From positions 64,001 through 128,000 of the forward strand of contig CBDANS010000007.1 in the NCBI GenBank assembly GCA_965197745.1: a stretch of DNA of 64,000 nt. The letters are read 5' to 3'. Positions within the stretch are counted from its first letter, which is position 1. Each line of letters begins with the position of its first letter. Position numbers and translations under genes: made by a program. Positions 22,753-39,136 of the stretch are shown here, one piece after another. The DNA comes from Opitutales bacterium. Its GTDB lineage: Bacteria; Verrucomicrobiota; Verrucomicrobiia; Opitutales; PNEW01. The notes beneath the pieces were generated by a model that was not told where the DNA came from, did no database searches, and saw only the letters and a list, made by a program, of their open reading frames with translations.

Positions 22753-22783
22753 CAAACTGCTCTTGATAGCTTGCTGGTGCTAC

Positions 22784-22994: not shown

Positions 22995-23002
22995 GTCCGG
23001 CT

Positions 23003-23812: not shown

Positions 23813-23832
23813 GTAATCTATGAAGTTCTGGA

Positions 23833-24264
23833 TTATATCGATAATAGAGCAGCGATACGATCCAACTCTTGTCGATCGGTAATCTCGATATGTTTATCGC
23901 TGAATCGTACTTTGCCGTCTTCAATATAAGCATGTCGACTGGATACAATATCATGCGGGTCCTGCTGCGGAACCAGGATAAGATGAGCGTGAGGTAGACC
24001 GAACCCATGGATCACCATTCCAATGCGCAAGGGCGATAGAACTTCCATCATTTTACGTCCGATTTGCTGAGAGATCACCATAATATGTGATACCAGATCA
24101 TCTGGTATATCAGTAAAATGATCGATATGCTCTTTTGGTAGGACGGTGCACTCTCCATTTCGTGTAGGTCGCAAGGTCATAAAGGAGATAATCCGGTCAT
24201 CTTCATAGACACGACTGGCAGGTGCTTGCCCGGCTATGATTTGGCAGAAAATACACTCATCCAT
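23833..24264 (-). CDS. HIT family protein
   Basis: CIFCQII, PKEH and a variant triad HAHLILVP (third His replaced). Confidence 0.85.
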   Translation of the reverse strand: MDECIFCQIIAGQAPASRVYEDDRIISFMTLRPTRNGECTVLPKEHIDHFTDIPDDLVSHIMVISQQIGRKMMEVLSPLRIGMVIHGFGLPHAHLILVPQQDPHDIVSSRHAYIEDGKVRFSDKHIEITDRQELDRIAALLSI

Positions 24265-24286
24265 GGCGTTTCATTTGGACAATTCT

Positions 24287-24339
24287 AACATCATATTATC
24301 CAACCGGTTATTGCGGTGAGAAAAACAAGAAGCAAATCA
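24287..24339 (-). repeat. GTT-terminated attI-like repeat, copy D (internally shortened)
   Basis: Minus strand TGATTTGCTTCTTGTTTTTCTCACCGCAATAACCGGTTGGATAATATGAT-GTT(AGAA); aligns to copy B with a gap of about 17 nt. Confidence 0.6.
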
Positions 24340-24774
24340 TTTCGGTTTTTCTAAATAGTCAATCACGGCATTCCAAAGTGGGTGGTCCGGCTGCATGTGC
24401 ATTCGATAGAAATCCACAGTTTTGCTCCATACTGGCCTACCCAACACCTCAGTAATAGTTCTATCCGACGCTTCCCCAATTCCTGTAGTGCTTGGATAGG
24501 TCGTTACATGCACGCTCAAATCTCCAACCTTGAATTTAAATGAGGGTGGGTTCGAGGGGGTGATCTGCGTAGGTCCATATTCTTTGAACACTTCCCTTGT
24601 TTCTTCGATGCATCCCCACTTCACGGTTATGTCCAGATCATCCATATCAAAGTTGATTCCATGAGCGAATAGGGCAGTGGAACCATCGAGATGATAGGTG
24701 ATCTTGTTCAATTCCAAATCGCAAACGATGCGCACTATCAGATTTCCCCAATCTCTTCTCCGTGGAATCTCCAT
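24337..24774 (-). CDS. Nucleotidyltransferase-fold protein
   Basis: GSTAL...G...DDLDI resembles the Pol-beta NTase hG[GS]...DxD signature. Confidence 0.6.
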   Translation of the reverse strand: MEIPRRRDWGNLIVRIVCDLELNKITYHLDGSTALFAHGINFDMDDLDITVKWGCIEETREVFKEYGPTQITPSNPPSFKFKVGDLSVHVTTYPSTTGIGEASDRTITEVLGRPVWSKTVDFYRMHMQPDHPLWNAVIDYLEKPK

Positions 24775-24788
24775 ATCAGTAATCGCTT

Positions 24789-24845
24789 GGCTGACGCTTA
24801 ATTCATCGGTGTTGTTTTCTCATCCGCTGGAGCGCCTTGTTGGGA
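24789..24845 (-). other. Degenerate complete attC-like site
   Basis: Minus strand TCCCAAC-AAGGC-GCTCCAGCGG...CCGATGAAT-TAAGC-GTCAGCC; the R''/L''/L'/R' order is kept, with mutations in L' and R'. Confidence 0.6.
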
Positions 24846-25402
24846 GTCTTTGGTGCTCCCGCATGGTAACGTTCATATCCGAAGAATTCGAAGTCTTCCC
24901 TTGAACCGTTCCACACAAGCTCTTCATCTCCTTCGGCCATAATCTCAATGAAGTTCCCTGATGGTCGATATCCACCCGCGTTCAAGTGAGGAAAAGATGC
25001 AACATCATTAGAATTCACAAAAGGAAGTTCCTTGAGGCACTCAGGTAAATCTTCGAAGTAGAGTATTTGAGTGATACCTGACCATTCAACGAATTCCTTC
25101 TGGCTTATAGGCTGGTCCTTTGGTCGAACCCAGTTGCTGACTGCTTCAGCGTAGCTTTTCGGTTTCTTATAGTCCTCGGGTTTGTCAACCGGCTCAAAAT
25201 ACCAACCGCTTGCCTGGATCTCATATGGATTTCTGATTAGTGTAAATACCAGGAAATCACTGAATTCTACCGGCACGATCCATTCGTGATGTCGACCATA
25301 CCACTCGCCCTGGTAGTGTTCCACGAGCCACTGTGACATGGATTTTGAACCCGTGCGTGGAATTGAAATATATATGTACTTAAGGGCTTTAGAAATAATC
25401 AT
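24803..25402 (-). CDS. Sulfotransferase family 2-like protein
   Basis: IPRTGSKS (PAPS 5'-PSB), RNPY and DFEFFGY motifs; start reassigned to MIISK downstream of GTTGGAC. Confidence 0.75.
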   Translation of the reverse strand: MIISKALKYIYISIPRTGSKSMSQWLVEHYQGEWYGRHHEWIVPVEFSDFLVFTLIRNPYEIQASGWYFEPVDKPEDYKKPKSYAEAVSNWVRPKDQPISQKEFVEWSGITQILYFEDLPECLKELPFVNSNDVASFPHLNAGGYRPSGNFIEIMAEGDEELVWNGSREDFEFFGYERYHAGAPKTPNKALQRMRKQHR

Positions 25403-25411
25403 ATCGTTTAC

Positions 25412-25506
25412 GTCCAACGTTCCAGATGAGCGACTGAAGAGAGAATAACCAAGAACGAGAGCGTCGCAAGCCAACATCGGAACTGAAAGCACCCGCTCCA
25501 TCTGGT
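25412..25506 (-). other. attC-like site with lost R'' box
   Basis: Minus strand CCAGATGGAGCG...CGCTCATCTGG-AAC-GTTGGAC; the arms pair with one extrahelical G, as in attC. Confidence 0.6.
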
Positions 25507-25545
25507 CTAATTATTTCATTCACTGGATGTTCCCGAGTGAGGCGC

Positions 25546-26346
25546 CTAGCCGGATAGCGAAACTGAACCAGTCAGAATGTGCCCGCAGGGAACGAAGCCG
25601 GCTTTCTGAAGCGTGTTGCGAGAAGAGATATTAGTGATGTGGCAACGTGCTGCGGGAACGCTTCCTTGCTCGTAACAAACCCGTTTCAACTCTTGCACCA
25701 GGTAACAGCCAAGTCCACGCCTCCAGAACGGTTCCGCCACTTCCATGTAAATGTCGCCATAAGGGCGATTATAGTGAAATAAAATGCCTCCAGTCGCCGC
25801 GATCTCGCCCTCGACATCTAATACCCAATCTCCAACCGGCTCCACTCGGTGTGGAAAAATATGTTCGGTATCGTCTTCTGTCGCTCTCCGAAAAACGGAG
25901 CCGTTCGAAGAGTGAGCAGTTGTCAGTTTATCGTGGAAGAGGATGGACTCGGGCTTCACTTTTTTAGCGAACGTGTGCAACATTACGGTCAACCATGGAT
26001 CATTGCTCTGGGTTCTGATCCTGTTCGAGCCGCAGGTGGTAAGCAGCACAACAAACAGGTCGAACATGCGCGAGCGATAAGGCGGTGCTACATAGAACTC
26101 GAACACCGCTGGGTTCTTCTTCCAAGATCCACCGACCATAATCGAGCCATATCCCGCAATGACGTCGCCTACAATGAGAAGATAGGGTTTGCTCCAACCT
26201 TTACGAGAGTGTAATGAGTCATGAATGATCTGGCAATTCATCTCCTGCCGGTAACGATCGCGCCAGGGTAAAATGTTCTCAAGCGTTGTAGTTCTCGCCG
26301 TGTTTTTTTGAATTCTCTCTACGGGAGTGGCAATGCCTTTTAACAT
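25546..26346 (-). CDS. GNAT family N-acetyltransferase (start uncertain)
   Basis: VAEPFWRRGLG and SRNTLQKAGF motifs; the longer track ORF runs through the upstream repeat. Confidence 0.82.
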   Translation of the reverse strand: MLKGIATPVERIQKNTARTTTLENILPWRDRYRQEMNCQIIHDSLHSRKGWSKPYLLIVGDVIAGYGSIMVGGSWKKNPAVFEFYVAPPYRSRMFDLFVVLLTTCGSNRIRTQSNDPWLTVMLHTFAKKVKPESILFHDKLTTAHSSNGSVFRRATEDDTEHIFPHRVEPVGDWVLDVEGEIAATGGILFHYNRPYGDIYMEVAEPFWRRGLGCYLVQELKRVCYEQGSVPAARCHITNISSRNTLQKAGFVPCGHILTGSVSLSG

Positions 26347-26415
26347 TAGATTAGCCAATAGGTTTTCAATATAGTCTCCGCTATCGAGGGGAGAAAGGCA
26401 ACAGACAAATCTCAA
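26342..26415 (-). repeat. GTT-terminated attI-like repeat, copy A
   Basis: Minus strand TTGAGATTTGTCTGTTGCCTTTCT...AAAACCTATTGGCTAATCTAAT-GTT; 56/74 identical to copy B by manual alignment. Confidence 0.75.
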
Positions 26416-26420
26416 CAGTG

Positions 26421-26445
26421 GGTCCGCTTCAGCGTGTTGTCAGGC
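26421..26445 (-). other. Left half of an attC-like site, cut off by repeat A
   Basis: Minus strand GCCTGAC-AACAC-GCTGAAGCGGACC directly after the APH stop. Confidence 0.55.
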
Positions 26446-26446
26446 G

Positions 26447-27334
26447 TCATTTTATCTCCTCATCCGCGAGGATATCATCGATCACCTGCATTGCCCTGGC
26501 AGCTTCAGCGGGATTGCTTCCGCGATGCTCCCTTAGTTCCAGTAATGCCTTCCAAATACCCCAACCTCGCCCTCGCACCCAGGTCGCTTCGTCGACGTTC
26601 AGTTCAGAGTGGAAATATTCCCTGCTTGATCCGGATAAGAATGTCCACGCGATGGTGACGTCGCAGGAAGGATCTCCCGCTCCCAGTTGTCCGAAATCGA
26701 TCACGGCGCAAAGTCGTCCCCCTTGCACGAGGAGATTATCGAACGCGACGTCACCGTGGACCCAAACGGGTTGGCGATCCCATTTTGCTTTTAAAGCCGA
26801 TTCCCAAATAGAGGTCGCCGCCTGCGCATCAATTACATCTTCCAGTGCCTCTATGCACTCGCGGGTCTGAGAGTCATACACCGATAAATCTCCGCCTCGA
26901 TAGTGGTTGTCTGGTCCCGCCAGTGGTGCATGGGTTGTATCAATCGTTTGCAGTATATTCAAAAAGTTGGCGATATCTTTCGCGAATTCATTCAAATCAG
27001 AAATACGCTCGATGGAAGCATTTTCACCTTGAAGCCACTTGTTCACGGACCAGGGCCACGGGTACCCCAGTCCCGGAATACCTCTTCCGAGAGGGACTGG
27101 AATTGGTAGTGGAAGATGGGGGGCGAGTTTAGGGAGCCACTCATGCTCTGTGTTGACGTGCTTCATGTAATTCTTTCCGCTCGGCATTCGAACACTCATT
27201 TCATCGCCAAGATGGAATGTTCTATTGTCGTGTCCATCGATCTCGACTGGGGTTATCGCCAGATTTGCCCACTGGGAAAACTGCGCAGCGACCAACCGCT
27301 GCACGAGGGATACATTAATTTCCACTATGTCCAT
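26447..27334 (-). CDS. Aminoglycoside phosphotransferase (APH) family protein
   Basis: GHDNRTF, VWVHGD..DN and IDFG motifs; start MDIVEI follows GTTAGGC at 27343-27349. Confidence 0.9.
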   Translation of the reverse strand: MDIVEINVSLVQRLVAAQFSQWANLAITPVEIDGHDNRTFHLGDEMSVRMPSGKNYMKHVNTEHEWLPKLAPHLPLPIPVPLGRGIPGLGYPWPWSVNKWLQGENASIERISDLNEFAKDIANFLNILQTIDTTHAPLAGPDNHYRGGDLSVYDSQTRECIEALEDVIDAQAATSIWESALKAKWDRQPVWVHGDVAFDNLLVQGGRLCAVIDFGQLGAGDPSCDVTIAWTFLSGSSREYFHSELNVDEATWVRGRGWGIWKALLELREHRGSNPAEAARAMQVIDDILADEEIK

Positions 27335-27391
27335 TTCTTGTTGCCTAACGTTTAGCTTGATCCTCAAATGGCCCGCTAGGCATGGGTCCAA

Positions 27392-28189
27392 TTATAGCGG
27401 TCGATGCTTTTGCTTTTCCAGTTCATACATCCAGTAGTCTCGATCGTAACCAAAGGTTTCGAAATCAGCCTCGTAAATGTCGTAGACCAGATCCGCCTGC
27501 TCGCGGTCGTAAACGATAGCCGGCGGATACACCTGGGTGGTCGGATTTTTGACAACGGAAGCCGTAGCAAGAATGTCTGGCGGTGCATTCAGGCGTGTCA
27601 GCACATGCTCAAAATCGCTCTGGAACGTCTCGAACCGGCCAATAAAGTCATAAGCAATCAGATCCGGCACGAGGATACGTGCCTGGACATTGAAGTGACC
27701 ATCGCGACGCACACGGTCTCCCGCATCATGCAGGTAGCGTACGAAGTCGCGGAAGGGCACAAGCCTCTCGAGGCCATCCTCGTCTGGTGAGTAAGCGAGG
27801 CTCATCCTGATATCATCCTTAAGCCACTGGTACTCTTTGTTCCATGTGTTACCCACTTGCGTCTTGTACGCTGAGAGCAGTCGGTCATAGGGATTCCTGA
27901 CGAAGCAGAATCTAAACCACTCAGGGGATGTCAACATTTCGAGAATTTGGTCTCTTTCGAAGGAACTCAAACGCAAACCCACTTTGCTAGCAGCTCCAGG
28001 TTCGTGGAGTTCGGGATTCCCGTTCAACATGTGTAGTGTCATTAAAATCCGGGAACTGGCGATCTTCGGAACAGTGACACAGACACACCTGTGCTCAACA
28101 GATACCCTTGAGAAGTAAGTCAAAGTATTGTTCGTGTTATGGTCGAGGATGGCATCGACCCACTTAGATAGCTGTTTTTCCACCATCAT
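27392..28189 (-). CDS. Sulfotransferase family 2 protein
   Basis: VPKIASS, FVRNPYDRLLSAY, YDFIGRFE and DFETFGY motifs. Confidence 0.88.
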   Translation of the reverse strand: MMVEKQLSKWVDAILDHNTNNTLTYFSRVSVEHRCVCVTVPKIASSRILMTLHMLNGNPELHEPGAASKVGLRLSSFERDQILEMLTSPEWFRFCFVRNPYDRLLSAYKTQVGNTWNKEYQWLKDDIRMSLAYSPDEDGLERLVPFRDFVRYLHDAGDRVRRDGHFNVQARILVPDLIAYDFIGRFETFQSDFEHVLTRLNAPPDILATASVVKNPTTQVYPPAIVYDREQADLVYDIYEADFETFGYDRDYWMYELEKQKHRPL

Positions 28190-28206
28190 TCAATTCTTCT
28201 CCGCAT

Positions 28207-28279
28207 AACATTAGATCGGCCAACAGGTTTTTATGGAGGATCGGCTATTACGGTTAGAAAGACAACGAACAAATCTCAA
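28207..28279 (-). repeat. GTT-terminated attI-like repeat, copy B
   Basis: Minus strand TTGAGATTTGTTCGTTGTCTTTCT...AAAAACCTGTTGGCCGATCTAAT-GTT(ATGC). Confidence 0.75.
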
Positions 28280-28331
28280 GTTGAGATAGCCGCAAACTAA
28301 ATCGCCGCTTCCAATGGTTTGATTGAATCTT

Positions 28332-28988
28332 TTATTCTGTGTAAGCCTTCAAATCCTTTTTGCTTAGAGGAGACTCAAACCAAATGATATGTCGATCCGG
28401 GTCTTTAACGAATATCTGCCTCATCCCATAAGGAGCGATGCAGGGTTCGTCAATGGAAAGACCATTAGCGATCAATTGATGGTAGACCCTATCAACATCT
28501 TTTGTAATAAAGCAGAGCTTTATCGGATCATCGCTGACAACGAAATTTTTTCTTCCTTCTTCAATCATTATTTGAATGCCATCTCGTTTCAATCGACACC
28601 AATAGAGGGAATTGCCATTCATAGCACTGCTTACTCTATGAAATCCTAAAATCCCTTCATAGAATTTTAAGGAGTTCTGGATATTTGAAACCGGAATCAA
28701 TGGAATGATGCGGCGTATATTGAATTGTTCATCTACTCTCATTTCGATTTCGGTTTTCAATTTTTCCCAGCTTTTGTATCCATATTCCCTGGCCAGAACA
28801 TATTGAGTGTCCGAGATTTTCCATTCGTATTGCTCCGCTTCCTCTAAGGATTTATTATGGAACTCAGGATGCGAATCCAACACGCGTATGAACGCCTGTC
28901 TTTGTTTCGATTTCAGACTTTTAAGTAATTCTTTAGCCTGATTTTTGAGCTGCTCTAAATTTGCCTTTTCTGGCAATTGCTTATTCAT
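28332..28988 (-). CDS. VOC/glyoxalase protein with an N-terminal LPxxxNLEQLKxQAK domain
   Basis: N-terminal domain ends QYVLAREYGYKSWEKLK; C-terminal VOC has FYEGILGF and PYGMRQIFVKDPD. Confidence 0.82.
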   Translation of the reverse strand: MNKQLPEKANLEQLKNQAKELLKSLKSKQRQAFIRVLDSHPEFHNKSLEEAEQYEWKISDTQYVLAREYGYKSWEKLKTEIEMRVDEQFNIRRIIPLIPVSNIQNSLKFYEGILGFHRVSSAMNGNSLYWCRLKRDGIQIMIEEGRKNFVVSDDPIKLCFITKDVDRVYHQLIANGLSIDEPCIAPYGMRQIFVKDPDRHIIWFESPLSKKDLKAYTE

Positions 28989-28992
28989 GATA

Positions 28993-29101
28993 CCTCCTTG
29001 CTTCTAAGCCATAGACTCACAACATGGCAGCAATTAGGTTTGCTCTTTAAAAATGAAGGTAAGCTCAGCTCTTTCCGTGAGTCCAGATGCGTCCTCTACG
29101 C
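28993..29101 (-). promoter_or_regulatory. Candidate structured 5' leader RNA
   Basis: GACTCAC/GTGAGTC long-range pairing (29014-20 with 29077-83), GCCAT/ATGGC hairpin enclosing one strand, and a GCGT/ACGC hairpin. Abuts the AAGGAGG RBS; TTGACA at 29133-29138. Confidence 0.5.
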
Positions 29102-29229
29102 TAATTAAATAGATTGATATCCGATCCTTCACTGTCAACGTCATTTTCTAATTCCAAATAAAATTCAAAAGTCATCTTAACGGTTCCTAAGTCCATTATA
29201 TGCGCTCACCAAAGGTCATCACCGAAATT

Positions 29230-29811
29230 TTATAAGGCCCGATTTGTTGTTGATTTCCATTTTTCAGGAGTGAAAGGCCATCGAAGACGATTACATATAA
29301 CCTTCCAGCGATCCGACATCGCTTTTGTATTCAATAAAGGGACATAACCAAGGCGCAAATAAATCTTCAATGCGGGCAGGCGATAGTCCTCTGAGTAGAG
29401 ATGAATGATACGGTAACCTTCCTCGATGAAGCGGGCGGTCACAGCCGCACTGACAGATAAACCTAATCCTTTTCCTGAATGTGTCGGAGCTCCCGCAAGC
29501 CAGCCAAGTTCACCTCCTGAAGAATATGCTTCTGATCTCAAGGCCATACAGCTTGCTACCATTTGGCCGCTCATCTCGTGAATTGCCACATACCATCCAC
29601 CAGGTAACAACCGCTGGAACCACGGATCAAGCCGCTGTTTATCCCAGTCATTCCATCCAGCCATTTTCATCAAATTTAAAAAAGGGTCTTCGTCACCCGG
29701 CTGGTAGGTCCGCATTAAATATCCAGGACATAGACGAACAGCCGGTGGTGTGTGCAAAAGATACACCGGCCATGCCATTTGTAACTGAAGGTCATGCTGC
29801 TCTTTGCTCAT
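29230..29811 (-). CDS. GNAT family N-acetyltransferase
   Basis: HSGKGLG and PALKIYLRLGY motifs. Confidence 0.85.
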   Translation of the reverse strand: MSKEQHDLQLQMAWPVYLLHTPPAVRLCPGYLMRTYQPGDEDPFLNLMKMAGWNDWDKQRLDPWFQRLLPGGWYVAIHEMSGQMVASCMALRSEAYSSGGELGWLAGAPTHSGKGLGLSVSAAVTARFIEEGYRIIHLYSEDYRLPALKIYLRLGYVPLLNTKAMSDRWKVICNRLRWPFTPEKWKSTTNRAL

Positions 29812-29871
29812 TATTTCCCTATGGCAAAGTCTGACCCTTTTTGACTTTCTTAATACCAATAAACGTACCGC

Positions 29872-30411
29872 TTAATCTTTATGGGGTTCGTCGATTAGAA
29901 TGTAAGTAACAGGGGGTGTATGCTTCTTAAAATGCTTCCTCGTATCATTAGACAGTTTTCTAAATAACTGCGGTGTCATTGAGAAACCGTATGTCTTCTG
30001 TAAGAACATGGTGTTTACAGTAGAGCCAAAAATATCAAATCGCTTATCTTTCCTCGTTCCAATTTCACCACAGACAACACTTCCGAAATGGGCTTTGAGG
30101 TGATGCCTGCTGGGGATATTTTTACGATTTAACCACTCATCTCCTTTTTCTTTCAGAGATAATAGCGCCAGCACCCCTTCATCGATCGAATCGGATGGAA
30201 ATAAAAGGAGATTTGCATCCCCTATAAATTTTACCACTCGGCCATTAGCGCGCCCTATTATATCACCAATGAGTTCATAGTATTGAGATAGCATTGCGAA
30301 TAGATCAATTTCCGATAATTGCCTTGCGAAACGCGCAAAATTAGAGAGATCGGAAGAGGCAACCAATGCCTCGATACACGTAATATTTTCAGTTAATGGA
30401 TTCTGTTCCAT
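29872..30411 (-). CDS. Stand-alone class III adenylate/guanylate cyclase domain protein
   Basis: SDLSNF, VKFIGDA, HFGSV and DIFGSTVN motifs; the usual N...R is altered. Confidence 0.8.
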   Translation of the reverse strand: MEQNPLTENITCIEALVASSDLSNFARFARQLSEIDLFAMLSQYYELIGDIIGRANGRVVKFIGDANLLLFPSDSIDEGVLALLSLKEKGDEWLNRKNIPSRHHLKAHFGSVVCGEIGTRKDKRFDIFGSTVNTMFLQKTYGFSMTPQLFRKLSNDTRKHFKKHTPPVTYILIDEPHKD

Positions 30412-30589
30412 TTTATTGTTCCTTCAGGTTGTTATGATTGATTTCGACGACCTGTGAATTCGTCAGGTATGGAAGGAATCGCCAGCTCAAAAGTCTGGCA
30501 GTTATAGATTATAAGGTATTATTTTTTGATTTATGACGCAATTCTTTTCTCCTTCTCTCTTTCAACCTATTAATACACAGCCTGACACC

Positions 30590-31150
30590 TTATAACTTGC
30601 TTGTGCTAAGTAGATAGCGGTCGGCTCCCTTTTTGGATTCACCTGTTGGTGCGAATCGAAACCTGTGAATAAGCCTGATGGACGCAAGATTCCCGGGTTC
30701 GATATAGGCATCGATCGAATGGGACCCGTAGGTTGAAGTGGCCCATGATATTGCAGCACGACAGGCTTCTGACATAATCCCTTTACCCCAAAAACGTGGG
30801 TGTAAGTGAAAAGCGATTTCAGAACATCGACCCAGCGAGTTGAAGCCTACTGCTCCGGTGAATTGAGGTTTGTCTTTTAATAATAACGCCCACCTGAAGG
30901 CAGTTCCCTGTTCTTGATGTCGCATAAAGAAGTCCAGGATCTTGTCGCTTTCCTGGGAGTTTGTTGCCGGCAGCTCTATGGGGTTGCCCCAAAAGTCGAT
31001 CGCGGGACCTGAATAACATGACACTTCCGGACTTGACCAGAGTTCGAACATCCCAAGTGAATGATCTTTTGAGAAGGGCTCTAAGACCAGCCGCTCCGTT
31101 TGCAGATGTGGCACTTCCAGCATAGTGCATATCAATTTTTCGGCATCCAA
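30590..31150 (-). CDS. RimJ/RimL-type GNAT
   Basis: LQTERLVLE, FWGKGIMSEA and NLASIRL motifs; start may be the ATG at 31123. Confidence 0.85.
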   Translation of the reverse strand: MDAEKLICTMLEVPHLQTERLVLEPFSKDHSLGMFELWSSPEVSCYSGPAIDFWGNPIELPATNSQESDKILDFFMRHQEQGTAFRWALLLKDKPQFTGAVGFNSLGRCSEIAFHLHPRFWGKGIMSEACRAAISWATSTYGSHSIDAYIEPGNLASIRLIHRFRFAPTGESKKGADRYLLSTSKL

Positions 31151-31159
31151 ATCTAAAAC

Positions 31160-31921
31160 TCAGCGGTGCGGCTTATTCACGTCAGGTTTCAGCCGAGGGG
31201 GGATGATTTTTCTGGCACGTATGCACATAAAAAGCGGCTTCCGCAAGAGCTTATGGTAAAACTCTGGATCAGTATTCTTAATCGCTTCTGTTGGCATTGG
31301 TTCGTGAACATTTTCAATCAAAAATCCAGCATCCGTTACAGAGGATATCACTTCCGTTAACGGTCGGCGTACACTTTGCATCTCGAATTTTTTTTTGAAT
31401 CCGGAACCCCATACACTCTTGACTAATTCGGTCTCAAAGTAATTGTCCGTTCCGTAATCCTCAAAAGCGAAACAAGGATGCCCTACTGAAAAAAGCACAA
31501 TTCCGTCATTTTTAAGAATCCGGTGCAATTCTTGAAATAATTGCTTCCAGTCCCAAACGTAATCAAAAACCAAAGGAGATAAAACCAGGTCAAGGGAACT
31601 GTTTTCTATAAAATCCAGAGGCTTAGACAAATCGGCCACTTTGACTTCACATTTCCCCTTTGTCCTTTTCTTTGTGATGTCAACCATGCGTTGACTGTAA
31701 TCAATCGCCAATACTTTGGCCCCATGTTCCAGTAACCACTCGGTATAAACCCCGGGACCACATCCGGCATCGAGGACATATTTCCCTTTCACCTCCGGCA
31801 TAATCGACAGCATTGCCGGTTTCTCATACAAGGCGTTTGCGTCCTTTGTCTCTACCATAGAGGCATAATCTTCAGCGATATCTTCGTAGATAGCGTGCGC
31901 GATCGATTGCTTTGTTTTCAT
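31160..31921 (-). CDS. Class I SAM-dependent methyltransferase
   Basis: VLDAGCGPG motif; start MKTKQ just after the GTTGGGT site. Confidence 0.9.
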   Translation of the reverse strand: MKTKQSIAHAIYEDIAEDYASMVETKDANALYEKPAMLSIMPEVKGKYVLDAGCGPGVYTEWLLEHGAKVLAIDYSQRMVDITKKRTKGKCEVKVADLSKPLDFIENSSLDLVLSPLVFDYVWDWKQLFQELHRILKNDGIVLFSVGHPCFAFEDYGTDNYFETELVKSVWGSGFKKKFEMQSVRRPLTEVISSVTDAGFLIENVHEPMPTEAIKNTDPEFYHKLLRKPLFMCIRARKIIPPRLKPDVNKPHR

Positions 31922-31934
31922 TTTGTCATCACCC

Positions 31935-32017
31935 AACAATTGATTAGCCAATAGTTTTTTATCGAATCTCGGTTAATGCCCGGAGAAAGTCGATTTCAAA
32001 GGGCCTGACCCCTTTTT
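31935..32017 (-). repeat. GGGGTCAGG element joined to attI-like repeat copy C
   Basis: Minus strand AAAAAGGGGTCAGGCCCTTTGAAATCGACTTTCT...AAAAAACTATTGGCTAATCAATT-GTTGGGT (fits GTTRRRY). Confidence 0.72.
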
Positions 32018-32022
32018 GAATG

Positions 32023-32544
32023 TTATTTGTACTCCAGTTTCTTCTCCAAGACAAATTCGCACGCTGATGTTGCGGGATGGTCTGATTTATAATCCTTAAG
32101 CTGCTCAGAACCCAGTTGCTCAAAACCTATTTTGTAATAGAATGCCAGGGCACGGGAATTTGAAGGCATGACTCCAGCCAGGATTGATCGCATGCCACGA
32201 TCTGTTGCCCATTTTATGACATGTTCTATAAGATCCGATGCAATACTACTTCCGCGGAATGAGGGGGCCACCCACATTGAGATTAGATATGATCTCAGGG
32301 AATTTTCTTCATCAGGAAAACCTATAGCCATACCGACCGGCTCTTGATCATTTATCGCGATAGCGCAAAATTCTTTCACACTACCAGCACCATTACGGGT
32401 GCGTTCCTGCCAGTAATCGTCAGATTTTTTTCTGGCTTGATCCAATGTTGTGGCAAACGCGCCTGGTGAATCTTCCAGCGCAGTAAGTCGCACTTGCTTC
32501 AATAAGAGCCATTCATCGGCCTGGATTTGTCTTACTGTAATCAT
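32023..32544 (-). CDS. GNAT family N-acetyltransferase
   Basis: MWVAPSFRG and ALAFYYKIGF motifs; GTTAGCA lies upstream on the minus strand at about 32582-32588. Confidence 0.88.
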   Translation of the reverse strand: MITVRQIQADEWLLLKQVRLTALEDSPGAFATTLDQARKKSDDYWQERTRNGAGSVKEFCAIAINDQEPVGMAIGFPDEENSLRSYLISMWVAPSFRGSSIASDLIEHVIKWATDRGMRSILAGVMPSNSRALAFYYKIGFEQLGSEQLKDYKSDHPATSACEFVLEKKLEYK

Positions 32545-32620
32545 TTTACTGATGTAAACTTGAGCATTCAGTCTCGGGGGGTGCTAACAGTGAATACGTC
32601 TCGGACCTTGATGAAATTAA

Positions 32621-33382
32621 TTATTTTTGGTCCCTTGGAATTAGATTATTGATTATATGTTGTCTTCCCGGGTGCAAAAGGTCCTCAAGCATTTTTACAA
32701 CGGTGTCCTGGTTGTAGTGAACCAGCCGATGATTAATTTTATAGTCATTATTTGATGCATGCAGTAAAACGTAACTGGCTCTTTTATCATCTGTATGCGA
32801 CAAGCTAACACTACCAAGATTCACCAAGTGCCATGCATCAACTTGGCGCGTCATTGGGCGATGGGTATGCCCGACACATATAAGGTCAGCTTCGCACTCG
32901 TGAAGTAATGCGCGAATCTCGTCATCTTCATTCTCAGGCGAAAAGCCAGAACCATCATCTAGTCCTGGAGAAGCGTGAACCCCCAAAAATTTAGTTCCAT
33001 TCGGTAATATCTCATTAATTTCGAGTGGCAGTTCCTCTAGCCATTTCAACCAGCCAGAAGCTGCTATTGCGCCCTGTGTCCAACTGAATGTTTCGGCTAC
33101 TTCCACGAACTGTGGTATAAGGCTTAATTTGGATTTCACTTCGTCAAGGGTTGGTGAAGGACGTTCTCCAAATGCCACATATCGATCAGTATTTCCTCGG
33201 ATGAATCTTGCGTTTGCAAGATTTGTCAGTCGTTCAAGGACCCCCACCGGGTCGGGCCCGATTGCAACAAGATCCCCCAAAATCCAGTAACCGTCGACAC
33301 CACCTTGCGCTTCTATATCTTCCAGTACCGCATCAAGGGCTACAGAGTTTCCGTGAATATCACTTAGTAGTGCGATTTTCAT
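32621..33382 (-). CDS. Calcineurin-like metallophosphoesterase (YfcE-like)
   Basis: SDIHGN, GDLV, GNTD, GHTH and NLGSV motifs. Confidence 0.92.
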   Translation of the reverse strand: MKIALLSDIHGNSVALDAVLEDIEAQGGVDGYWILGDLVAIGPDPVGVLERLTNLANARFIRGNTDRYVAFGERPSPTLDEVKSKLSLIPQFVEVAETFSWTQGAIAASGWLKWLEELPLEINEILPNGTKFLGVHASPGLDDGSGFSPENEDDEIRALLHECEADLICVGHTHRPMTRQVDAWHLVNLGSVSLSHTDDKRASYVLLHASNNDYKINHRLVHYNQDTVVKMLEDLLHPGRQHIINNLIPRDQK

Positions 33383-33430
33383 TTAGTGTCGGACTCAGGA
33401 ATTCAGCAGTGTGTTATCAGATACGCATCA

Positions 33431-33886
33431 TCATGACTTCCTGTCATTCAGATAAGTGCCCAGCTTCTTTACTAAACCCGGGGGTAGCCCCGCAATAGTG
33501 GTTTTTCTTTCTGCGGACGGCAATGCCTCCATCGCTTTAATGACATTTTCGCGCGAGACATTAGGATTGAAAATCCGCTTTTTCAATTCTGTCGTGATTA
33601 TGGATGAAGCTTGTTCATCCGTCGAAGTACGCTTCAACGATGACTTTGCCCGTTTCCTGCGTTGCAATCGTTGCTTCTTGCGATCCGTCTTAGAGTCCAC
33701 TTCAAGCTTACGATACAGTTCCTCCGAAATCTCTCCACTGACGATATTCTGCAAAATTTCGTCAAGACGTAATGTTTCTGCATTATCTTTAGCGACTATT
33801 GCCGCGCGACGACGTCGTGAAATGTAACGATACACCTGATCTTCCCAATACGGCTCAGCGATTAGTGATTGGGAGTCAGGCTTCAT
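33431..33886 (-). CDS. Hypothetical basic protein
   Basis: 151-aa ATG-started ORF, co-oriented with the array; no recognised motif. Confidence 0.5.
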   Translation of the reverse strand: MKPDSQSLIAEPYWEDQVYRYISRRRRAAIVAKDNAETLRLDEILQNIVSGEISEELYRKLEVDSKTDRKKQRLQRRKRAKSSLKRTSTDEQASSIITTELKKRIFNPNVSRENVIKAMEALPSAERKTTIAGLPPGLVKKLGTYLNDRKS

Positions 33887-34158
33887 ATATTAATATTTTT
33901 GGAATATTAGTTTAAAAAGCAATATACGATAGAATAGATCAGCATCTAATTAGGATCCTTAATTAATCATTAATTTTATTATTAACAAATGAACTTTACT
34001 AAGGTTGGTAGGCTAACGTATGGAAACATTACAAAATGAAGCCTGGCTCCTTTTGACCCTGCAGGAATATTTTATTGCACCGTTCCCTATCCAGGCTTAC
34101 AGAGGCCGTGGTCAGCGGCCTCTGCAAATCCTGAATCAGGTTTAGTAATCGTACTCTC

Positions 34159-34705
34159 TTATTGATTAATCTTAACCTGGACAGGTACTGTATTTTGTAC
34201 CGTGTCCAAAATGACAGAATGCTGGATAATCTGCATCAACTCATCTTCATCAGCATCAGATTGTATATTGAATCCAATCTCAATATCCTGGAACCCGGGA
34301 CGCACATTAGGATCTATACCCAGTAAACCTTGAAGATCTAATTTTCCTTTAGCTTTTGATTCCATTTTATATATCGTTATCCCTCTAGCAGCGGCATGAT
34401 AGGCGATCGTCGTCGTTATACATCCTGCAAGGGCATGCAGTAAGTATTCTGCCGGATTCACGGCCTTATCTGTTCCCAGAAGAGAGATTGGCTCATCGTT
34501 GGTATATTCGAATACATCGGTCCGAGTTGTATCTTCTTCCTTCGCTCCGTAGAAGCCTTTTATGGTTGATTTATTTATCGACCCATGTATTGTTGGACCT
34601 GAATTCAAACTGTGCCATTTCAGGATCATTTTTCATGACTTCGATGTTTTCATTGAGTTGAGCGACGTCTACTCCGTTTACTTTTGTTTCTATTGTTGTG
34701 GTCAT
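34159..34705 (-). pseudogene. OsmC-family protein, frameshifted
   Basis: N-terminus MTTTIETKVNGVDV...FEFRSNNTWVD* continues in another frame as NKSTIKGFYG...NPAEYLLHALAGC; shift near 34575. Confidence 0.8.
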
Positions 34706-34740
34706 TTTTGTTCTTTATTTTGTATTTTTGGTTGATATAT

Positions 34741-34754
34741 ACAGACATGTCTGT
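34741..34754. promoter_or_regulatory. Putative TetR operator
   Basis: Perfect palindrome ACAGACATGTCTGT upstream of the OsmC-like gene. Confidence 0.7.
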
Positions 34755-34774
34755 CTGTTTTTATGAAAAAAATA

Positions 34775-35359
34775 TTATTTAATAAGCGCCACTACTTGCC
34801 TTCTTGCGTGGCGAACAGGCCACAGTTCTTGATGTATCATCACCAGAGCAATGGCTCCCGTGAGTATGGTTAAGTAATCGTTCGTTAAGGTTTCGACATC
34901 GAGATGGCTGTATTTCTTCCCATCTGACTGTATAAGGTCAGATGATATTTCTTTAATGATTGCCTTCAAAGTTTCATAATGGAGTTTACTTTCCTTTCTT
35001 ACAGGATCTGCATGATTAGAGATCTCGGGCACCATACGAAGGAAACCGCAGCCTTTCAGCCCATTTTGGATGATCCATGGCTCAATACATTCAATCAAAG
35101 CCATAAACCTGGTCCGTGGAGTTTTCTTTTCATGGATAGCAGCTTTCAAATCCCCGATCTCCTTAATATTTAGATTACTGATATACGCTAAATTCAGGTG
35201 ATCTTTAGTTGGAAAATGTGAGTAGAATGTAGCCTTCGATACGTTTGCTTTCTTTATAATCTCGTTCGTCCCGGTTTGATGATAGCCATATTGATAGAAC
35301 AACTCCGTCGCGGTCTTCAAAATCCGTTCTCTTGCTGGACTTTCTTTCTTTTCTATCAT
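34775..35359 (-). CDS. TetR/AcrR family transcriptional regulator
   Basis: ARERILKTATELF...VSKATFYSHFPTKD helix-turn-helix; start MIEKK. Confidence 0.93.
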   Translation of the reverse strand: MIEKKESPARERILKTATELFYQYGYHQTGTNEIIKKANVSKATFYSHFPTKDHLNLAYISNLNIKEIGDLKAAIHEKKTPRTRFMALIECIEPWIIQNGLKGCGFLRMVPEISNHADPVRKESKLHYETLKAIIKEISSDLIQSDGKKYSHLDVETLTNDYLTILTGAIALVMIHQELWPVRHARRQVVALIK

Positions 35360-35366
35360 TGAGCAA

Positions 35367-35394
35367 ACTCTAAGCAGACAGACCAGTCTGTCAA
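35367..35394 (-). promoter_or_regulatory. sigma70-type promoter with overlapping TetR operator
   Basis: Minus strand TTGACA-N16-TAGAGT; GACAGAC-CA-GTCTGTC (35377-35392) matches the operator at 34741. Confidence 0.65.
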
Positions 35395-35727
35395 GTAAAT
35401 ATTGCAAAAAATTTGCAAATAAGCAAATTCAGGTAATTTAGCGTATTTACCTCACGTTGAATCTATTGATTTTGAACATCATAGGTGAGACGGGGAGTAT
35501 GCTGGGGCGTGCCGATCTTTTTGTAAAATGGTTTTCGAGCGAACAAAAAGAATGGAATGACAAAAGTGTCGTAGTGATATCATTAAGTGTGCTTTCGAAG
35601 GAAGGAAACACATACTCAGTGGCGATAAGATCATCGCAGCATTTCAATTACCTGTTTCACAACTTACTTAGAAAAGACAAAAAAATTTATAATTGCCCTA
35701 GTTTTTTTGCAGCATTAGGTGAAATAA

Positions 35728-36951
35728 ATGGGAATCAGTATTGGGTTAGTCGGCCTTGGATCGTTCGGTCAAGTGTTCGCTGATCTATTTCGAAGTCATC
35801 CCGGGGTGGACCGTATCGCCCTCTGCGACCGTGAGCCGGAAAGAATGGACGCAATCGCATCACGGCGTCAATGGGACAGAAAATTCAATCCGCGCGATAA
35901 GTACGCCACCCTTGAGGAAATGCTTAAGACTGATGTCGACGCTGTAGCCATCATTACCCAGCATTGGCTCCATGCGCCCCAATGTGTCCAGGCGATGGAG
36001 GCGGGCAAACATGTCTACAGTGCCGTGCCGGTCATCACCGTGCCCGATGCTGACGAAATTCTCGACTGGTGTGAGCGGATAGTCGAAACGAGTCGGCAAA
36101 CCGGCCAGTACTACATGTTGGGAGAGACAACATATTATCATGCCGACACTATGTTTTGCCGGCGCAAGGCCGCTGAAAATGCGTTTGGGCACTTCGTCTA
36201 TGCCGAAGGTGAGTACTTCCATGATGTTGACGCGCTAAGCAACCTGCGCGATGTCATCCGCATGCGAACGGCGAGCGCCTCGGGAAAGGAATGGCTCGAA
36301 AACAAGCGTCGCTACCTGGCTGCTGGAATTGGGGACGGTCCGATGCATTACCCCACTCACTCAACCAGTGGTCCGGTTTCGGTGATGAAGGCACATGCGG
36401 TGAAGGTCACGGCCTACGGTTACAAAAACCGGAATGAAGATCCTTTTTTTGCGGACCATGCCTTCAGCAATGAAGTCGCCTTGTTCCGGATGTCAAACGG
36501 AGCATCGGTTCGAATCTGCGAGTTCCGAGAACTGGCCGGCTCTTTCCACAAGGGAGAGACGTTCCGAATTGTTGGCACACGCGGAACTTATGCGGAAAAC
36601 ACGTGGAAAGAGAACTTTCGCACCGACACGTCGCCGGCGAGACCGTTGGAGATAACGACTTTGACCGACGAAGAGATGCGGGATCCCTTACCGGCGGAGG
36701 TGGCGCTCGCCTTTAAGCAGATTGAGGAACCGGAGGCAGTGGATGATTCCGATTTCACACCCAAGGGGCACGGCGGCTCTCATCCTTATCTAGTAAATGA
36801 GTTTGTCGATGCGATTATTAATCAACGTCAACCGGCAACCAATGCCTGGGAGGCCGCGCGCTACACGGTGATGGGAGCGATGGCGCATAAGTCCGCGCTT
36901 CGTGATGGGGAAACCCTGGACGTGCCCGACTTTGGAGACGCGCCGCAGTAG
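35728..36951 (+). CDS. Gfo/Idh/MocA family oxidoreductase
   Basis: GLVGLGSFG Rossmann motif; AGKHVYSAVP, EGEYFH and GHGGSH. Confidence 0.9.
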   Translation: MGISIGLVGLGSFGQVFADLFRSHPGVDRIALCDREPERMDAIASRRQWDRKFNPRDKYATLEEMLKTDVDAVAIITQHWLHAPQCVQAMEAGKHVYSAVPVITVPDADEILDWCERIVETSRQTGQYYMLGETTYYHADTMFCRRKAAENAFGHFVYAEGEYFHDVDALSNLRDVIRMRTASASGKEWLENKRRYLAAGIGDGPMHYPTHSTSGPVSVMKAHAVKVTAYGYKNRNEDPFFADHAFSNEVALFRMSNGASVRICEFRELAGSFHKGETFRIVGTRGTYAENTWKENFRTDTSPARPLEITTLTDEEMRDPLPAEVALAFKQIEEPEAVDDSDFTPKGHGGSHPYLVNEFVDAIINQRQPATNAWEAARYTVMGAMAHKSALRDGETLDVPDFGDAPQ

Positions 36952-36987
36952 AAACTAAGCGGTCGATTTGACTCTTTATGACCCGCT

Positions 36988-37374
36988 CTACGACTGACGC
37001 TGACCGAGACAATAACACAGTCCATCTGGGGCAATGACAAAAAAGACCCGAAAGGAGGTCTCTCCGTGTTGGTCAATTCGGTATCCAGCATCTTCTCGAT
37101 CAAGGCCATTTGACTTCAATTCATTAAAAGCAGCTTCCACTTCATCGACTTCAAAGAAACAGCCCTCCTGGGTTGGATCACCGCCATTCTCCGCGAGACC
37201 AATCTGGATACTATCTCTGCCCAGGACCGCAGATTTGCGTGGTGTATCGGTGCGCGACAGAACCTGAAACCCCATCACCGTCTGGTAAAAAGGGAGCGCA
37301 GCGTCGACACTTTCGACGGGAAGATTCATCGCGTCATCTGCATACGGTGCGGCATTCTTGAATATCGCTGCCAT
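36988..37374 (-). CDS. VOC family protein
   Basis: FYQTVMGF and FFVIAPDG motifs. Confidence 0.8.
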   Translation of the reverse strand: MAAIFKNAAPYADDAMNLPVESVDAALPFYQTVMGFQVLSRTDTPRKSAVLGRDSIQIGLAENGGDPTQEGCFFEVDEVEAAFNELKSNGLDREDAGYRIDQHGETSFRVFFVIAPDGLCYCLGQRQS

Positions 37375-37409
37375 GATTATTCCTATGATGAGATAATAAT
37401 GGATTAGTG

Positions 37410-37465
37410 AACGTGCATTTATGAGTATCGGTTATTGTGTGAAGAATGGCAACTAGCAAATCTTA
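37410..37465 (-). repeat. GTT-terminated attI-like repeat, copy E
   Basis: Minus strand TAAGATTTGCTAGTTGCCATTCTTCACACAATAACCGATACTCATAAATGCAC-GTT, upstream of the VOC gene. Confidence 0.55.
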
Positions 37466-37547
37466 AAGTAGATGGTTCTTCTACAATGCGAATCGTTTGA
37501 CTATTTAAACCTTCGCCTTCATCCTTCCAGTTATTTACATCAATATT

Positions 37548-37688
37548 AAGGTGGAACGCGTCCTGCGATGAGCTATGTCGAATCGTGTCCCTAGCGCGTT
37601 TGAATATGTCGTATTAGAAGAAGCGTGCTTGGAACAGCCGTCGCTGTGCATTGATAAGCTATGGCCGTCAGGCAGCCCGCTCCACCTT
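37548..37688. repeat. Nested REP-like elements
   Basis: AAGGTGGAAC...GCTCCACCTT inverted ends enclose other short motifs (GAGCTATGTCGAA; GCCGTCGC...GCTATGGCCGTCAGGC). Confidence 0.55.
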
Positions 37689-37750
37689 GAGCGGAGGCAA
37701 AATAATTATTATATATCTTAATCGTCCGGCTCCATAATGCTCATGGATGC

Positions 37751-38606
37751 CTAGCACGGTTTGTCACCGGCCAGGGTGACGCGATGCATGATGCGCCTGA
37801 ATCCGTGATAGTCATTTATGGGGTTGTGCTGGGTACAGCGATTATCCCAGAAGGCGAGGGAGCCTTGTCCCCAGCGAAAGCGGCTGGTGAACTCCGGCCT
37901 GACCTGGTGCTTGAAGAGTTGGTCGAGGAGAGACCGACTTTCCTCATCCGTCCAACCCTCGATATGCGTCGTATGGGCATTGTTGACGTACAGGGCCTTG
38001 CGTCCCGTTTCCGGGTGTGTGCGTACTGCCGGGTGCATTGCGCACAACACTTTAACTTCCACGCCATCATCGCGTAGGCGGTCCTCCCGCGTTTTAGCGA
38101 CCTCGGGTTTCGTCGAGTTGTTAACGCCGACCAGGTCGGTGAGTTTCGTTTTAAGATCCTCAGAGAGGGTTTCATAGGCCTTGTACTGATTGGCGAAAAG
38201 GGTGTCGCCGCCCGTGGGCGGGATCTCGACTGCGTAGAGCAGACTCGCCATCGGTGGATACTCGAGGTAGGTGGTGTCAGAGTGCCAGACGCCGCCGAAG
38301 TTCACGCGTTCATGCTCCAGCTTGATCACCGCGGTGACGAGCGGACACTCAGGCAGTCCTTTCAACTGGGGGTATTCCATTGGCTCGCCGAACTGCCGCG
38401 CGAAGTCGAGCTGCTCCTGCCTGGGGAGTAAGCTCCTGGTCGCGGAAAAAGATCACGAGGTAGTCAAGGAATGCCTGGCGGATTTCCGAAATAATTTCAC
38501 CTTCTAAAGGCTGCGAGATATCCACGCCATTGATTTCGGCGCCGAGCGCACCGTCAATCGGGCACACTTCGATAGTGCGAAAATTACGTTTCACCGCGTT
38601 ATCCAT
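37751..38606 (-). pseudogene. TauD/TfdA family 2-oxoglutarate dioxygenase, frameshifted
   Basis: N-terminal LGAEINGVD...VIFFRDQEL and C-terminal WHSD, GGDT, WDNRCTQH lie in different frames; an apparent 4-nt duplication CAGG-CAGG near 38415-38423. Confidence 0.85.
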
Positions 38607-38684
38607 TATTTTTTATTTTGTCGCGGCATCTTAGTCTAAGCTCGAGAGGAGTCATAGTGCGTGGCGAAGCTACACGAGATAGTC

Positions 38685-39107
38685 TTACTTCAATCGATAT
38701 CTTTTCGAATTCTCTGGCGAAGCGTAAACCACTTCCAGTTTAGTTCCATCGGGATCATAGAAAAACGTGGCATAGAATTCCTTATAGTGATACTCGGGAC
38801 AATCTACTGGAGGATCTTGAATTTTAACTCCGGGGAGCTTTCTGATAACTTTGTCATATATCTTATCAACGTATTCACGAGAGGGCGCGAAAAATGCAAA
38901 GTGATGAAGCCCTGCCATCCCCGTGTGAACTGGCCCCTGCCAGGCACCCTTTGTTTTCGCTTTTACAAGAATCAATAGAATTTCATCTTTAACATACACG
39001 TGACTCGCCTGATTCCGGAAACCAAGGGCTTTCATCAGCGGCATATAAAATTCAGCTGAGCGATTAAGATTCGAGCAGCAGATCTCAATATGATGGATTA
39101 CATTCAT
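38685..39107 (-). CDS. VOC family protein
   Basis: IHHIEI, GLHHFAF and YATFFYDPDGTKLE motifs. Confidence 0.88.
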   Translation of the reverse strand: MNVIHHIEICCSNLNRSAEFYMPLMKALGFRNQASHVYVKDEILLILVKAKTKGAWQGPVHTGMAGLHHFAFFAPSREYVDKIYDKVIRKLPGVKIQDPPVDCPEYHYKEFYATFFYDPDGTKLEVVYASPENSKRYRLK

Positions 39108-39136
39108 GATTATGCAGAACGTTTGGTAAGCAGTGT

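Follow-up and report, generated by a model that had tools for sequence, protein, structure and literature searches.

The locus described here raises the question of how several sequences resembling the integron site attI come to stand in a genome in which no integron integrase is found, each of them directly in front of a different gene. We address this question for a stretch of 64,000 nucleotides from an Opitutales bacterium (assembly GCA_965197745.1, contig CBDANS010000007.1, positions 64,001 to 128,000 of the forward strand; "the window", in which positions are counted from the first letter). Five related repeats, A to E, lie on its minus strand within 13 kb and align over 55-80 nt. We propose with moderate confidence that these repeats and their relatives are orphaned integron platforms, composed of the promoter Pc and attI, which are now kept as portable expression modules. 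This is the most economical account of the observations presented below.

In the cited descriptions attI is present once per integron, next to Pc; it is a simple site, sometimes with accessory direct repeats, and diverges strongly between integron classes (PMC4889954, PMC3146285, PMC4792948). The simple site is described there as two inversely oriented integrase-binding cores around the crossover between G and TT, written G/TT in the following (PMC3146285, PMC4792948).

The genome carrying the window (G000, an assembly of 4.45 Mb that is 92% complete) was compared with three sister genomes, G001 (a single contig), G002 and G003, which together with G000 make up four genomes of one family, and with G059, a 7.2-Mb Opitutales genome of another family. 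Repeats A-E were aligned with MAFFT and were also grouped by a repeat search of the window (families D1-D3). A first hidden Markov model (HMM), built from A-E alone, was searched against G000. A second-round nhmmer model contains 12 copies, for which its E-values are circular; we relied on the first round and on reciprocal searches. Column numbers refer to the module alignment A4, which contains 12 copies.

The repeats, called modules from here on, are listed in Table 1. The original prediction had placed all five at or close to these positions, with the exception that module E is longer (approximately 37392-37468 instead of 37410-37465). Its description of the shared parts is borne out by the alignment: a TTTCT...ATARCCG core occurs in A-E, GATTTG lies upstream of it in A, B, D and E, and a TTGG segment is present in A-D. 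Modules A and B, for which 56 of 74 identical positions had been given, agree in 59 of 85 positions of alignment A4. A gene does start closely behind each copy, between 8 nt before and 19 nt beyond the point where the aligned module ends, and all copies point towards a gene. The 5' end of module D overlaps the stop codon of an upstream open reading frame (ORF) of 145 aa. Within the 3' end of module A, the ATG at 26346-26344 is the start codon of the GNAT gene, and in module C a small AAAGGG...CCCTTT hairpin at approximately 31991-32015 takes the place of the 5' end.

What did not hold is the statement that similarity stops exactly after a terminal GTT. Among the copies it mostly extends to GTTA or GTTAG. 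Of the 11 G000 copies, 8 have the GTT; it is changed to GTC in C7:1342970, to GAT in C7:2060872 and in the G002 orthologue of A, and to ATT in E. The GTT that had been taken for the end of E (cacGTTcac) falls on the GTTGG inside the other copies once its G001 and G002 orthologues are included.

The family is not confined to the window. The HMM of A-E finds four further full copies in G000, with E-values from 5e-14 to 6e-11, together with three weaker ones (Table 1), which puts the repeats well outside what chance would give, and the second round lists 14 places in this genome. Five of these approximately 14 copies fall into 13 kb of a 4.45-Mb genome, which represents strong clustering. The 12-copy sequence-only model has 13, 20 and 1 matches in G001, G002 and G003, respectively, often as pairs 1-12 kb apart. 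The conserved 21-mer CTGTTGGCTAATCTAATGTTA, searched with up to three mismatches, has 9 matches in G000, 5 in G001 and 8 in G002. It is lacking from all 38 genomes that were taken as representatives of other families of the order, one per family; a control pattern gave one match in G000 and one match in a single one of these 38 genomes. We also noted a hairpin family of approximately 70 nt (AAAAGGGGTCAGGC...GCCTGACCCCTTTT), shaped like a bidirectional terminator, at L011 4815-4890 (G000 C7:1342815-1342890), which has 19 blast matches in G000, many in G001, and short forms in the window at approximately 31991-32015 and 29826-29850. It was rejected as a constant partner or part of the module, as it directly precedes only 3 of 11 copies.

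The link to integrons arises from G059. An integron integrase gene (intI) above the cut-off of the TIGR02249 model (265 bits) was found in 60 of 301 Opitutales genomes and in none of the four genomes of the G000 family. In G059 the distance from the intI start codon to the first cassette gene is approximately 145 bp, of which 80 bp are colinear with the module without a gap (GTTGCCTTTCCC, approximately 30 nt, then GTTGGAGAATACAATGTT); approximately 45 bp separate the module from the intI start, and 20 nt lie between it and the first cassette gene. This first gene encodes a GNAT protein, and its 3' attC belongs to the same family as those of the rest of the array. Since the gene ends in an attC it is a cassette, and attI must therefore overlap the module. 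Judged by this arrangement, the G059 copies probably serve as attI.

Two complete integrons of G059 carry the module, a partial match lies at the same offset beside a third, and four more copies are dispersed over the genome. An HMM of the four dispersed copies recovers the intI-adjacent sites at the same offset with E-values of 3e-16, 6e-9 and 0.04. Beside one dispersed copy (L087) a divergent remnant of intI was detected by tblastn approximately 42 nt from the module, comprising residues 2-69 (56% identity) and 130-218 (61%). Beside another (L089) intI residues 2-25 are left (E = 0.05), followed by an ISAzo13-type transposase gene. Both copies head ordinary genes without attC, among them a methyltransferase with an AlkZ-like glycosylase. 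The remnants indicate that at least two of the four dispersed G059 modules are integron platforms which have lost their integrase.

Reciprocal searches connect these sites with the family of the window. For an HMM of the two intI-adjacent G059 sites the best match in G000 is C6:717141-717206 (E = 0.005). An HMM of all six G059 copies ranks C6:717141-717204 first (E = 2.8e-4) and repeat A second (E = 0.013), and six of its 12 best G000 matches are known copies, all of them in register. In the opposite direction, the G000-family HMM was compared with 47 intI-upstream regions from Opitutales and gave E = 0.023 for L032 by nhmmer; if a divergent, island-linked copy was left out of the model, the values were 0.35 (L032) and 1.4 (L043). 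We regard homology between the G000-family modules and the intI-adjacent sequence of G059 as probable. Probable homologues beside intI, for which the original prediction had proposed a profile scan, exist in G059, and none beside intI was found in the four genomes of the G000 family. A short HMM of the 3' half and a local alignment of a 29-mer against the 47 regions were discarded, as shuffled sequences scored equally high. The attI regions of L035, L039 and L048, which by eye end in ...CTAATAATATTGTTCGCC-like strings, received no HMM support and were not counted.

Two observations on the recombinases themselves were made along the way. G059 contains approximately 30 near-identical genes for a tyrosine recombinase of 318 aa (e.g. 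C3:388599-389405), which reach 113 bits on the integron-integrase model, below the cut-off, and look like copies of a multi-copy recombinase-borne element. Many integron integrase frames of the Opitutales (L032 1498-2964 and other intI loci) are 400-500 aa long; in the G059 IntI approximately 175 residues precede the part matching the 315-position model, and contain a second stretch that looks SAM-like.

In the G000 family the corresponding neighbors are missing. No integron integrase was detected with TIGR02249 in G000 (best match 80 bits) or in G001, G002 and G003 (best match 84 bits), and tblastn with the G059 IntI against G000 found only Xer-like genes of 24-29% identity. A remnant of intI was found neither beside nine module contexts of the family nor anywhere in the window by tblastn with IntI. 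The absence of an integrase, as originally noted, is therefore correct for the window and, for integron integrases, also for the whole G000 assembly. The tyrosine recombinase genes nearest to the window lie 58 kb before and 37 kb after it. A 3.5-kb block present in three copies (L012 3400-6900, L014 3300-6700 and L015 3400-6750; G000 C7 near 1.06, 0.95 and 1.09 Mb) encodes a tyrosine recombinase of 416 aa (88-89% identical to each other) and contains a divergent module-like segment between two divergent small ORFs. Further integrases of 416-aa size are located in G000 at C7:6114, C7:164755 and C4:136043.

The modules themselves are not attC sites. Ten single-strand folds (five copies, both strands) gave z-scores from -1.1 to +1.0, none of them different from shuffles, a conserved AAC was not found at the module 5' end, and no repeat has an Rfam match. 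We rejected attC and structured RNA as explanations on these grounds, in agreement with the original view of the repeats as non-palindromic. The imperfect palindrome of an integron attC with its R''/R' ends (RYYYAAC ... GTTRRRY) is not present in the modules. Of the simple attI site, the left half GGCTAA is conserved, and only 2 of the 11 G000 copies have a perfect inverted partner TTAGCC after the G. Rfam gave a sole, weak match in the window from 18 to 44 kb, to Acido-Lenti-1 at 41179-41223 (25 bits versus a gathering score of 37); the segment 41139-41320, which overlaps it, has a tandem pair of copies at the orthologous site of G001 and G002.

To look for attC sites we used a purpose-written scan for hairpins closed by AAC...GTT, which covered the window from 18 to 44 kb. 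As a positive control, the canonical attCs of 60-66 nt in the G059 array L042 rank top, and looser settings return no fewer than 10 attCs there, with more in two other arrays. In the covered part of the window no intergenic attC was found; the candidates lie almost wholly inside coding sequence, and the non-coding ones at 33988-34146 and 41423-41557 have a length of 135-159 nt, unlike the attCs of 60-66 nt. Genome-wide the scan returned a handful of candidates in G000, none of them in the window. A cluster of at least two attCs without a nearby intI was consequently rejected on the basis of the scans of the window and the G000 genome. No module in the covered part of the window is followed by a cassette ending in attC, and a divergent intI adjoins no copy in the window, in G000 or in G001-G003, and only the homologues in G059. 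On the minus strand at 27343-27381, between the sulfotransferase and the phosphotransferase gene of the B unit, we observed an inverted repeat of 39 nt (GCCTAGC...GTTAGGC). It has a canonical GTTRRRY core 8 nt before the start of the latter gene and may be a degenerate mini-attC; its fold is no better than that of shuffles (z = -0.56).

Which function the modules could have kept is suggested by their invariant columns, which include T21 and G23 (TTGCCT), A45 and T49 (GAGACT), and A56. A45 and T49 are positions 2 and 6 of a putative -10 hexamer 17 nt after the -35 hexamer, and A56 lies 7 nt beyond the -10. Counted over 18 copies from the families of both G000 and G059, TTG is kept in 17, nAnnnT is likewise kept in 17, and the spacer has a length of 16-17 bp and differs in sequence. 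These positions and the spacer length agree with the geometry of sigma-70-type hexamers. Geometry and conservation are no proof of promoter activity or of a start site at the invariant A, to which they point. In A, C6:738 and C7:1342970 the ATG of the module opens the downstream frame; for A, G000 and G002 differ from this ATG on by 7, 1 and 6 substitutions at the first, second and third codon position (hand count), which is a coding-type pattern. The conservation of the 3' half in genomes without IntI may reflect a role as leader or operator. Three further readings of the 3' half, made by eye, were rejected: in a sigma-54 site (GG-N10-GC) the GC of the -12 element would be GT in all copies, for an ECF (extracytoplasmic function) sigma factor site (AAC-N17-GTT) the AAC is not conserved and is AAGCC in many, and a dif/Xer site is not supported as there is no dyad.

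The comparison with the relatives indicates how the modules are inherited. Synteny of module E with its glyoxalase gene extends over G000, G001 and G002, and the DNA upstream differs. Module A and its GNAT gene are 88% identical in G002, with homology from the module 5' end to the stop codon, and C6:717 with its gene is 96% identical there. C7:2042198 and its G001 orthologue have the gene and the 3' half of the module in common; their 5' halves are unrelated. The second 5' type seen in this orthologue also precedes a cold-shock gene in G001, with the same 3' half. Modules of this second type are followed by a conserved leader of approximately 65 nt (...TATTTTCTAACAAATCAATCCAGTGAACGCTAAAGCGCCACTGATTTCAATCGTT) at five or more loci in three genomes (Table 1). 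In all four informative comparisons, the module or at least its 3' half travels with the gene behind it. Module D is absent behind the G001/G002 orthologue of its upstream ORF; the homology breaks approximately 8 nt before D, and the downstream gene is absent too. Breakpoints relative to the relatives lie at the module 5' end or inside the module and never at G/TT. Co-inheritance of module and gene is the opposite of what an exchange at G/TT would give.

Contigs from four public runs of two studies contain the same structure without structural variation of the array and with no joint within 21000-39500; single contigs of runs X3 and X4 span 26080-34282 and 22523-25744. The strains are very close, and the result limits only recent activity. 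A clean pair of filled and empty sites was not obtained in three attempts (D; C6:738 and C7:1342970 in G001-G003); at C6:738 the sequence departs from G001 and G002 already 394 nt before the module, over a stretch of more than 2 kb. The original prediction had proposed to test whether the gene behind the GTT varies between strains, and had itself named genes fixed behind the module across relatives as an argument against it. Such fixed genes were found across genera for E, A, C6:717 and the 3' half of C7:2042198, and the array is the same in all four runs.

Taking these observations together, the proposed history is the following. Each module of approximately 75 bp would have begun as the platform of an Opitutales integron, i.e. 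the stretch from intI to the first cassette with Pc and attI. Read from 5' to 3' on the gene strand, it would comprise a sigma-70-type promoter (-35 TTGCCT, a spacer of 16-17 bp, a GAGACT-like -10 hexamer), the invariant A 7 nt beyond this hexamer as the likely start site, and a conserved leader of approximately 25 nt (AAAACCTGTTGGCTAATCTAATGTTAG), of which the last GTT would lie where the attI crossover is located in the integron copies. With no integron integrase in the family and no attC partners in the window, the copies presumably no longer recombine. They may persist because each supplies transcription, a leader and sometimes an ATG to the accessory gene or short operon behind it. "AttI plus first gene", as the units had originally been described, is thus a fair account of their likely origin; that they are working cassette docks finds no support.

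Several points weigh against this orphaned-platform account. A model built from the G000 family only scores the attI of G059 at just E = 0.65 in a genome of 7.2 Mb, and the statistical link between the two would be called moderate, not overwhelming. The module stands beside intI in G059 only, and the other 44 of the 47 intI-upstream regions are without a match. No intI remnant adjoins any copy in the G000 family, so that descent from platforms is derived from G059. By the E. coli consensus the putative -10 hexamer is weak; a scan with this consensus flags two of the five copies, E (TTGCCA-17-GATACT) and D, and the region has fewer sites than shuffles (16 versus 22.9). The best-conserved part is the 3' half, which would lie downstream of the predicted start and which a plain promoter does not explain. 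Finally, decay of intI explains neither the sharp 5' edge at upstream stop codons nor five copies within 13 kb.

The direction of descent could also be the reverse of the one we favor, with a resident promoter module having been adopted by the integrons of G059. Taken to its end, this leads to a lineage-specific promoter-and-leader module, or "mobile promoter", which was never a recombination site; G059 integrons would use a resident copy as Pc, and attI would merely overlap it. We consider this unlikely, but the account has its merits: it fits the module remaining with its downstream gene in all four informative comparisons, the 3' half in front of a cold-shock gene, the promoter-like invariant positions, the conservation of the 3' half between genera in genomes without IntI, and the many intI-upstream regions that lack the module. 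The arrangement in G059 speaks against it. There the module has a fixed distance of 42-45 bp from intI, in intact platforms as well as beside the two intI remnants, which makes it part of the platform, and with approximately 20 nt between the module end and the first cassette gene attI has to overlap the module. Moreover, similarity is lost at the same nucleotide, after ATGTT, in all copies of both families, which a duplicated promoter does not predict. Descent of the G000 copies from platforms is what we infer.

Sharp edges on both sides of the similarity would also be expected of a small non-autonomous mobile element with defined ends that lands before genes, similar to a miniature inverted-repeat transposable element (MITE) or a promoter-carrying insert. 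The 13-20 copies per genome and an imperfect inverted repeat of 7-12 bp in some copies (TTAGATTTGCCA / TGGCTAATCTAA, read from the sequences) are in line with such an element. We nevertheless hold it for improbable: the attempts at D, C6:738 and C7:1342970 revealed no empty site, no target-site duplication was seen, the inverted repeat, which is the sole MITE-like feature, is weak in A and B and produces no significant fold, and every copy points towards a gene. Less probable still are live docking sites, at which an integrase acting in trans (encoded in unassembled DNA or on an incoming element) or the resident 416-aa tyrosine recombinase would act at G/TT; this comes close to the undescribed recombinase of the original prediction. 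An assembly that is 92% complete leaves room for such an enzyme, the copies are clustered and co-oriented, and the heptamers after the G resemble the R' cores of G059 attCs (GTTATGC and GTTAGCC are found among both). At approximately 570 bp from genes for the 416-aa recombinase lie three divergent module-like segments, and recombination of attI x attI by IntI is documented at low frequency and described as rare (PMC4792948; Escudero et al. 2016). Set against this are the lack of IntI or a fragment of it in G000 and in the single-contig G001, the lack of attC in the window by a scan that finds attCs in G059, the invariance of the four runs, breakpoints that never fall at G/TT, and the mutation of the GTT in E and three further members of the family; the island segments lie inside the conserved 3.5-kb block and not at its ends. 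The idea of targets for a recombinase in trans is not supported on these grounds.

A bolder variant, which we regard as doubtful, is that in some Opitutales the attI-Pc platform is itself a multi-copy portable dock. A few integrases would then serve many scattered attI sites, capturing and expressing genes with or without attC, and genomes like G000 would be fossils after integrase loss. If true, this would open the origin of attI to direct testing, as that of a promoter-leader module which an integrase adopted.

The orphaned-platform reading can be set beside known systems. Like attI with Pc (attI1 of class 1 integrons; Elsaied et al. 2011, PMC3146285; PMC4792948; PMC4889954), the module is double-stranded, non-palindromic and approximately 65-75 bp long, and its place in G059 is the interval from a divergent intI to the first cassette. 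Its similarity ends at GTT, where a crossover at G/TT is expected, its GTTGCC, GTTGGC and GTTAG direct repeats, read from the alignment, resemble the upstream accessory IntI-binding repeats of attI1, and its predicted promoter reads towards the gene as Pc does into the cassettes. Unlike attI with Pc, it occurs in 13-20 copies per genome and not once per integron; the copies of the G000 family are without intI and without attC-bounded cassettes behind them, are inherited with the downstream gene, and have lost the GTT in some cases.

With putative mobile promoters (Nijveen, Matus-Garcia, van Passel 2012, PMC3575422) the modules share the reuse of highly similar upstream regions before unrelated genes, both inside one genome and between genera; the genes behind the near-identical upstream regions described here belong to unrelated Pfam families. 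The differences are the sharp common 3' end, the conserved leader, which is predicted to be transcribed, and a relative inside integron platforms, which provides a concrete origin for the reused piece. CALIN are clusters in which attC sites number two or more and no integron integrase is present (Cury et al. 2016, PMC4889954). They resemble the present case as integron-derived sequence in genomes without IntI, with arrays of small co-oriented accessory genes, and differ from it in that the window locus has no attC; here it would be the attI side that was left behind and not the attC side. In the literature, with most subscription journals outside the search, we found no description of an orphan or multi-copy attI, only laboratory work on attI x attI.

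Some features of the surrounding sequence remain to be reported. The sulfotransferase behind B has no relative in 300 other Opitutales genomes (E ≤ 1e-20) and no confirmed match in a genome contig search, and is uninformative on a cassette origin. Between a TauD-like gene and module E, at 37506-37688, lies an element of approximately 180 bp with dozens of copies in G001 and G002 (75-93% identity), which has 3-4 times the neighboring depth and many loose ends in all four runs. The TauD-family dioxygenase itself (minus strand, 37751-38606) is split into open frames of 85 aa and 209 aa, probably by a frameshift; in run X4 this region has deletions of 4 nt and 18 nt and an insertion of 18 nt. At 29249-29320, at the 3' end of a GNAT gene, lies a stretch of 72 nt that G001 and G002 repeat at several unrelated places (approximately 82% identity).

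Table 1. Modules and associated genes in the window, and further members of the family elsewhere (window positions unless a contig or locus is named).
Feature	Position	Strand	Remarks
Module D	24283..24342	-	short form, without approximately 18 nt between two AACC motifs; heads HIT-family gene
Module A	26338..26418	-	full length; heads GNAT gene
Module B	28203..28282	-	full length; heads sulfotransferase-APH gene pair
Module C	31931..31990	-	heads methyltransferase gene
Module E	37392..37468	-	3' half degenerate; terminal triplet ATT; heads glyoxalase-family gene
HIT-family gene (PF01230) behind D	23833..24264	-	
GNAT acetyltransferase gene behind A	25546..26346	-	266 aa counted from the ATG of the module
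Sulfotransferase gene behind B	27392..28189	-	
Aminoglycoside-phosphotransferase-family (APH) gene, second of B unit	26447..27334	-	start read from sequence
Methyltransferase gene behind C	31160..31921	-	ATG start used; in-frame TTG inside module C
Glyoxalase/bleomycin-resistance-family gene behind E	36988..37374	-	
Further full copy, G000	C6:717142-717216		
Further full copy, G000	C6:738413-738488		
Further full copy, G000	C7:2042198-2042265		
Further full copy, G000	C7:1467686-1467743		
Weaker copy, G000	C7:1342970		E = 0.007 (HMM of A-E)
Weaker copy, G000	C7:1064404		E = 0.014 (HMM of A-E)
Weaker copy, G000	C7:2060872		E = 0.14 (HMM of A-E)
Second-type 5' half with leader TATTTTCTAACAAATCAATCCAGTGAACGCTAAAGCGCCACTGATTTCAATCGTT	L010 5245-5310		no Rfam match
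Second-type 5' half with leader TATTTTCTAACAAATCAATCCAGTGAACGCTAAAGCGCCACTGATTTCAATCGTT	L018, L023, L026, L027		no Rfam match

In integron biology attI is regarded as a single-copy site tied to its integrase. According to the account favored here, the attI/Pc side would survive alone and be conserved between genera without an integrase. The modules head the kinds of genes that are usual in integron cassettes, namely acetyltransferases, glyoxalases, methyltransferases and a phosphotransferase. If the account is true, surveys that seek only intI and attC miss this class of integron remains, and genomes like G059 would represent a natural system for asking whether one integrase serves several attI sites. 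It would also mean that integron platforms can be recycled as ready-made expression modules.

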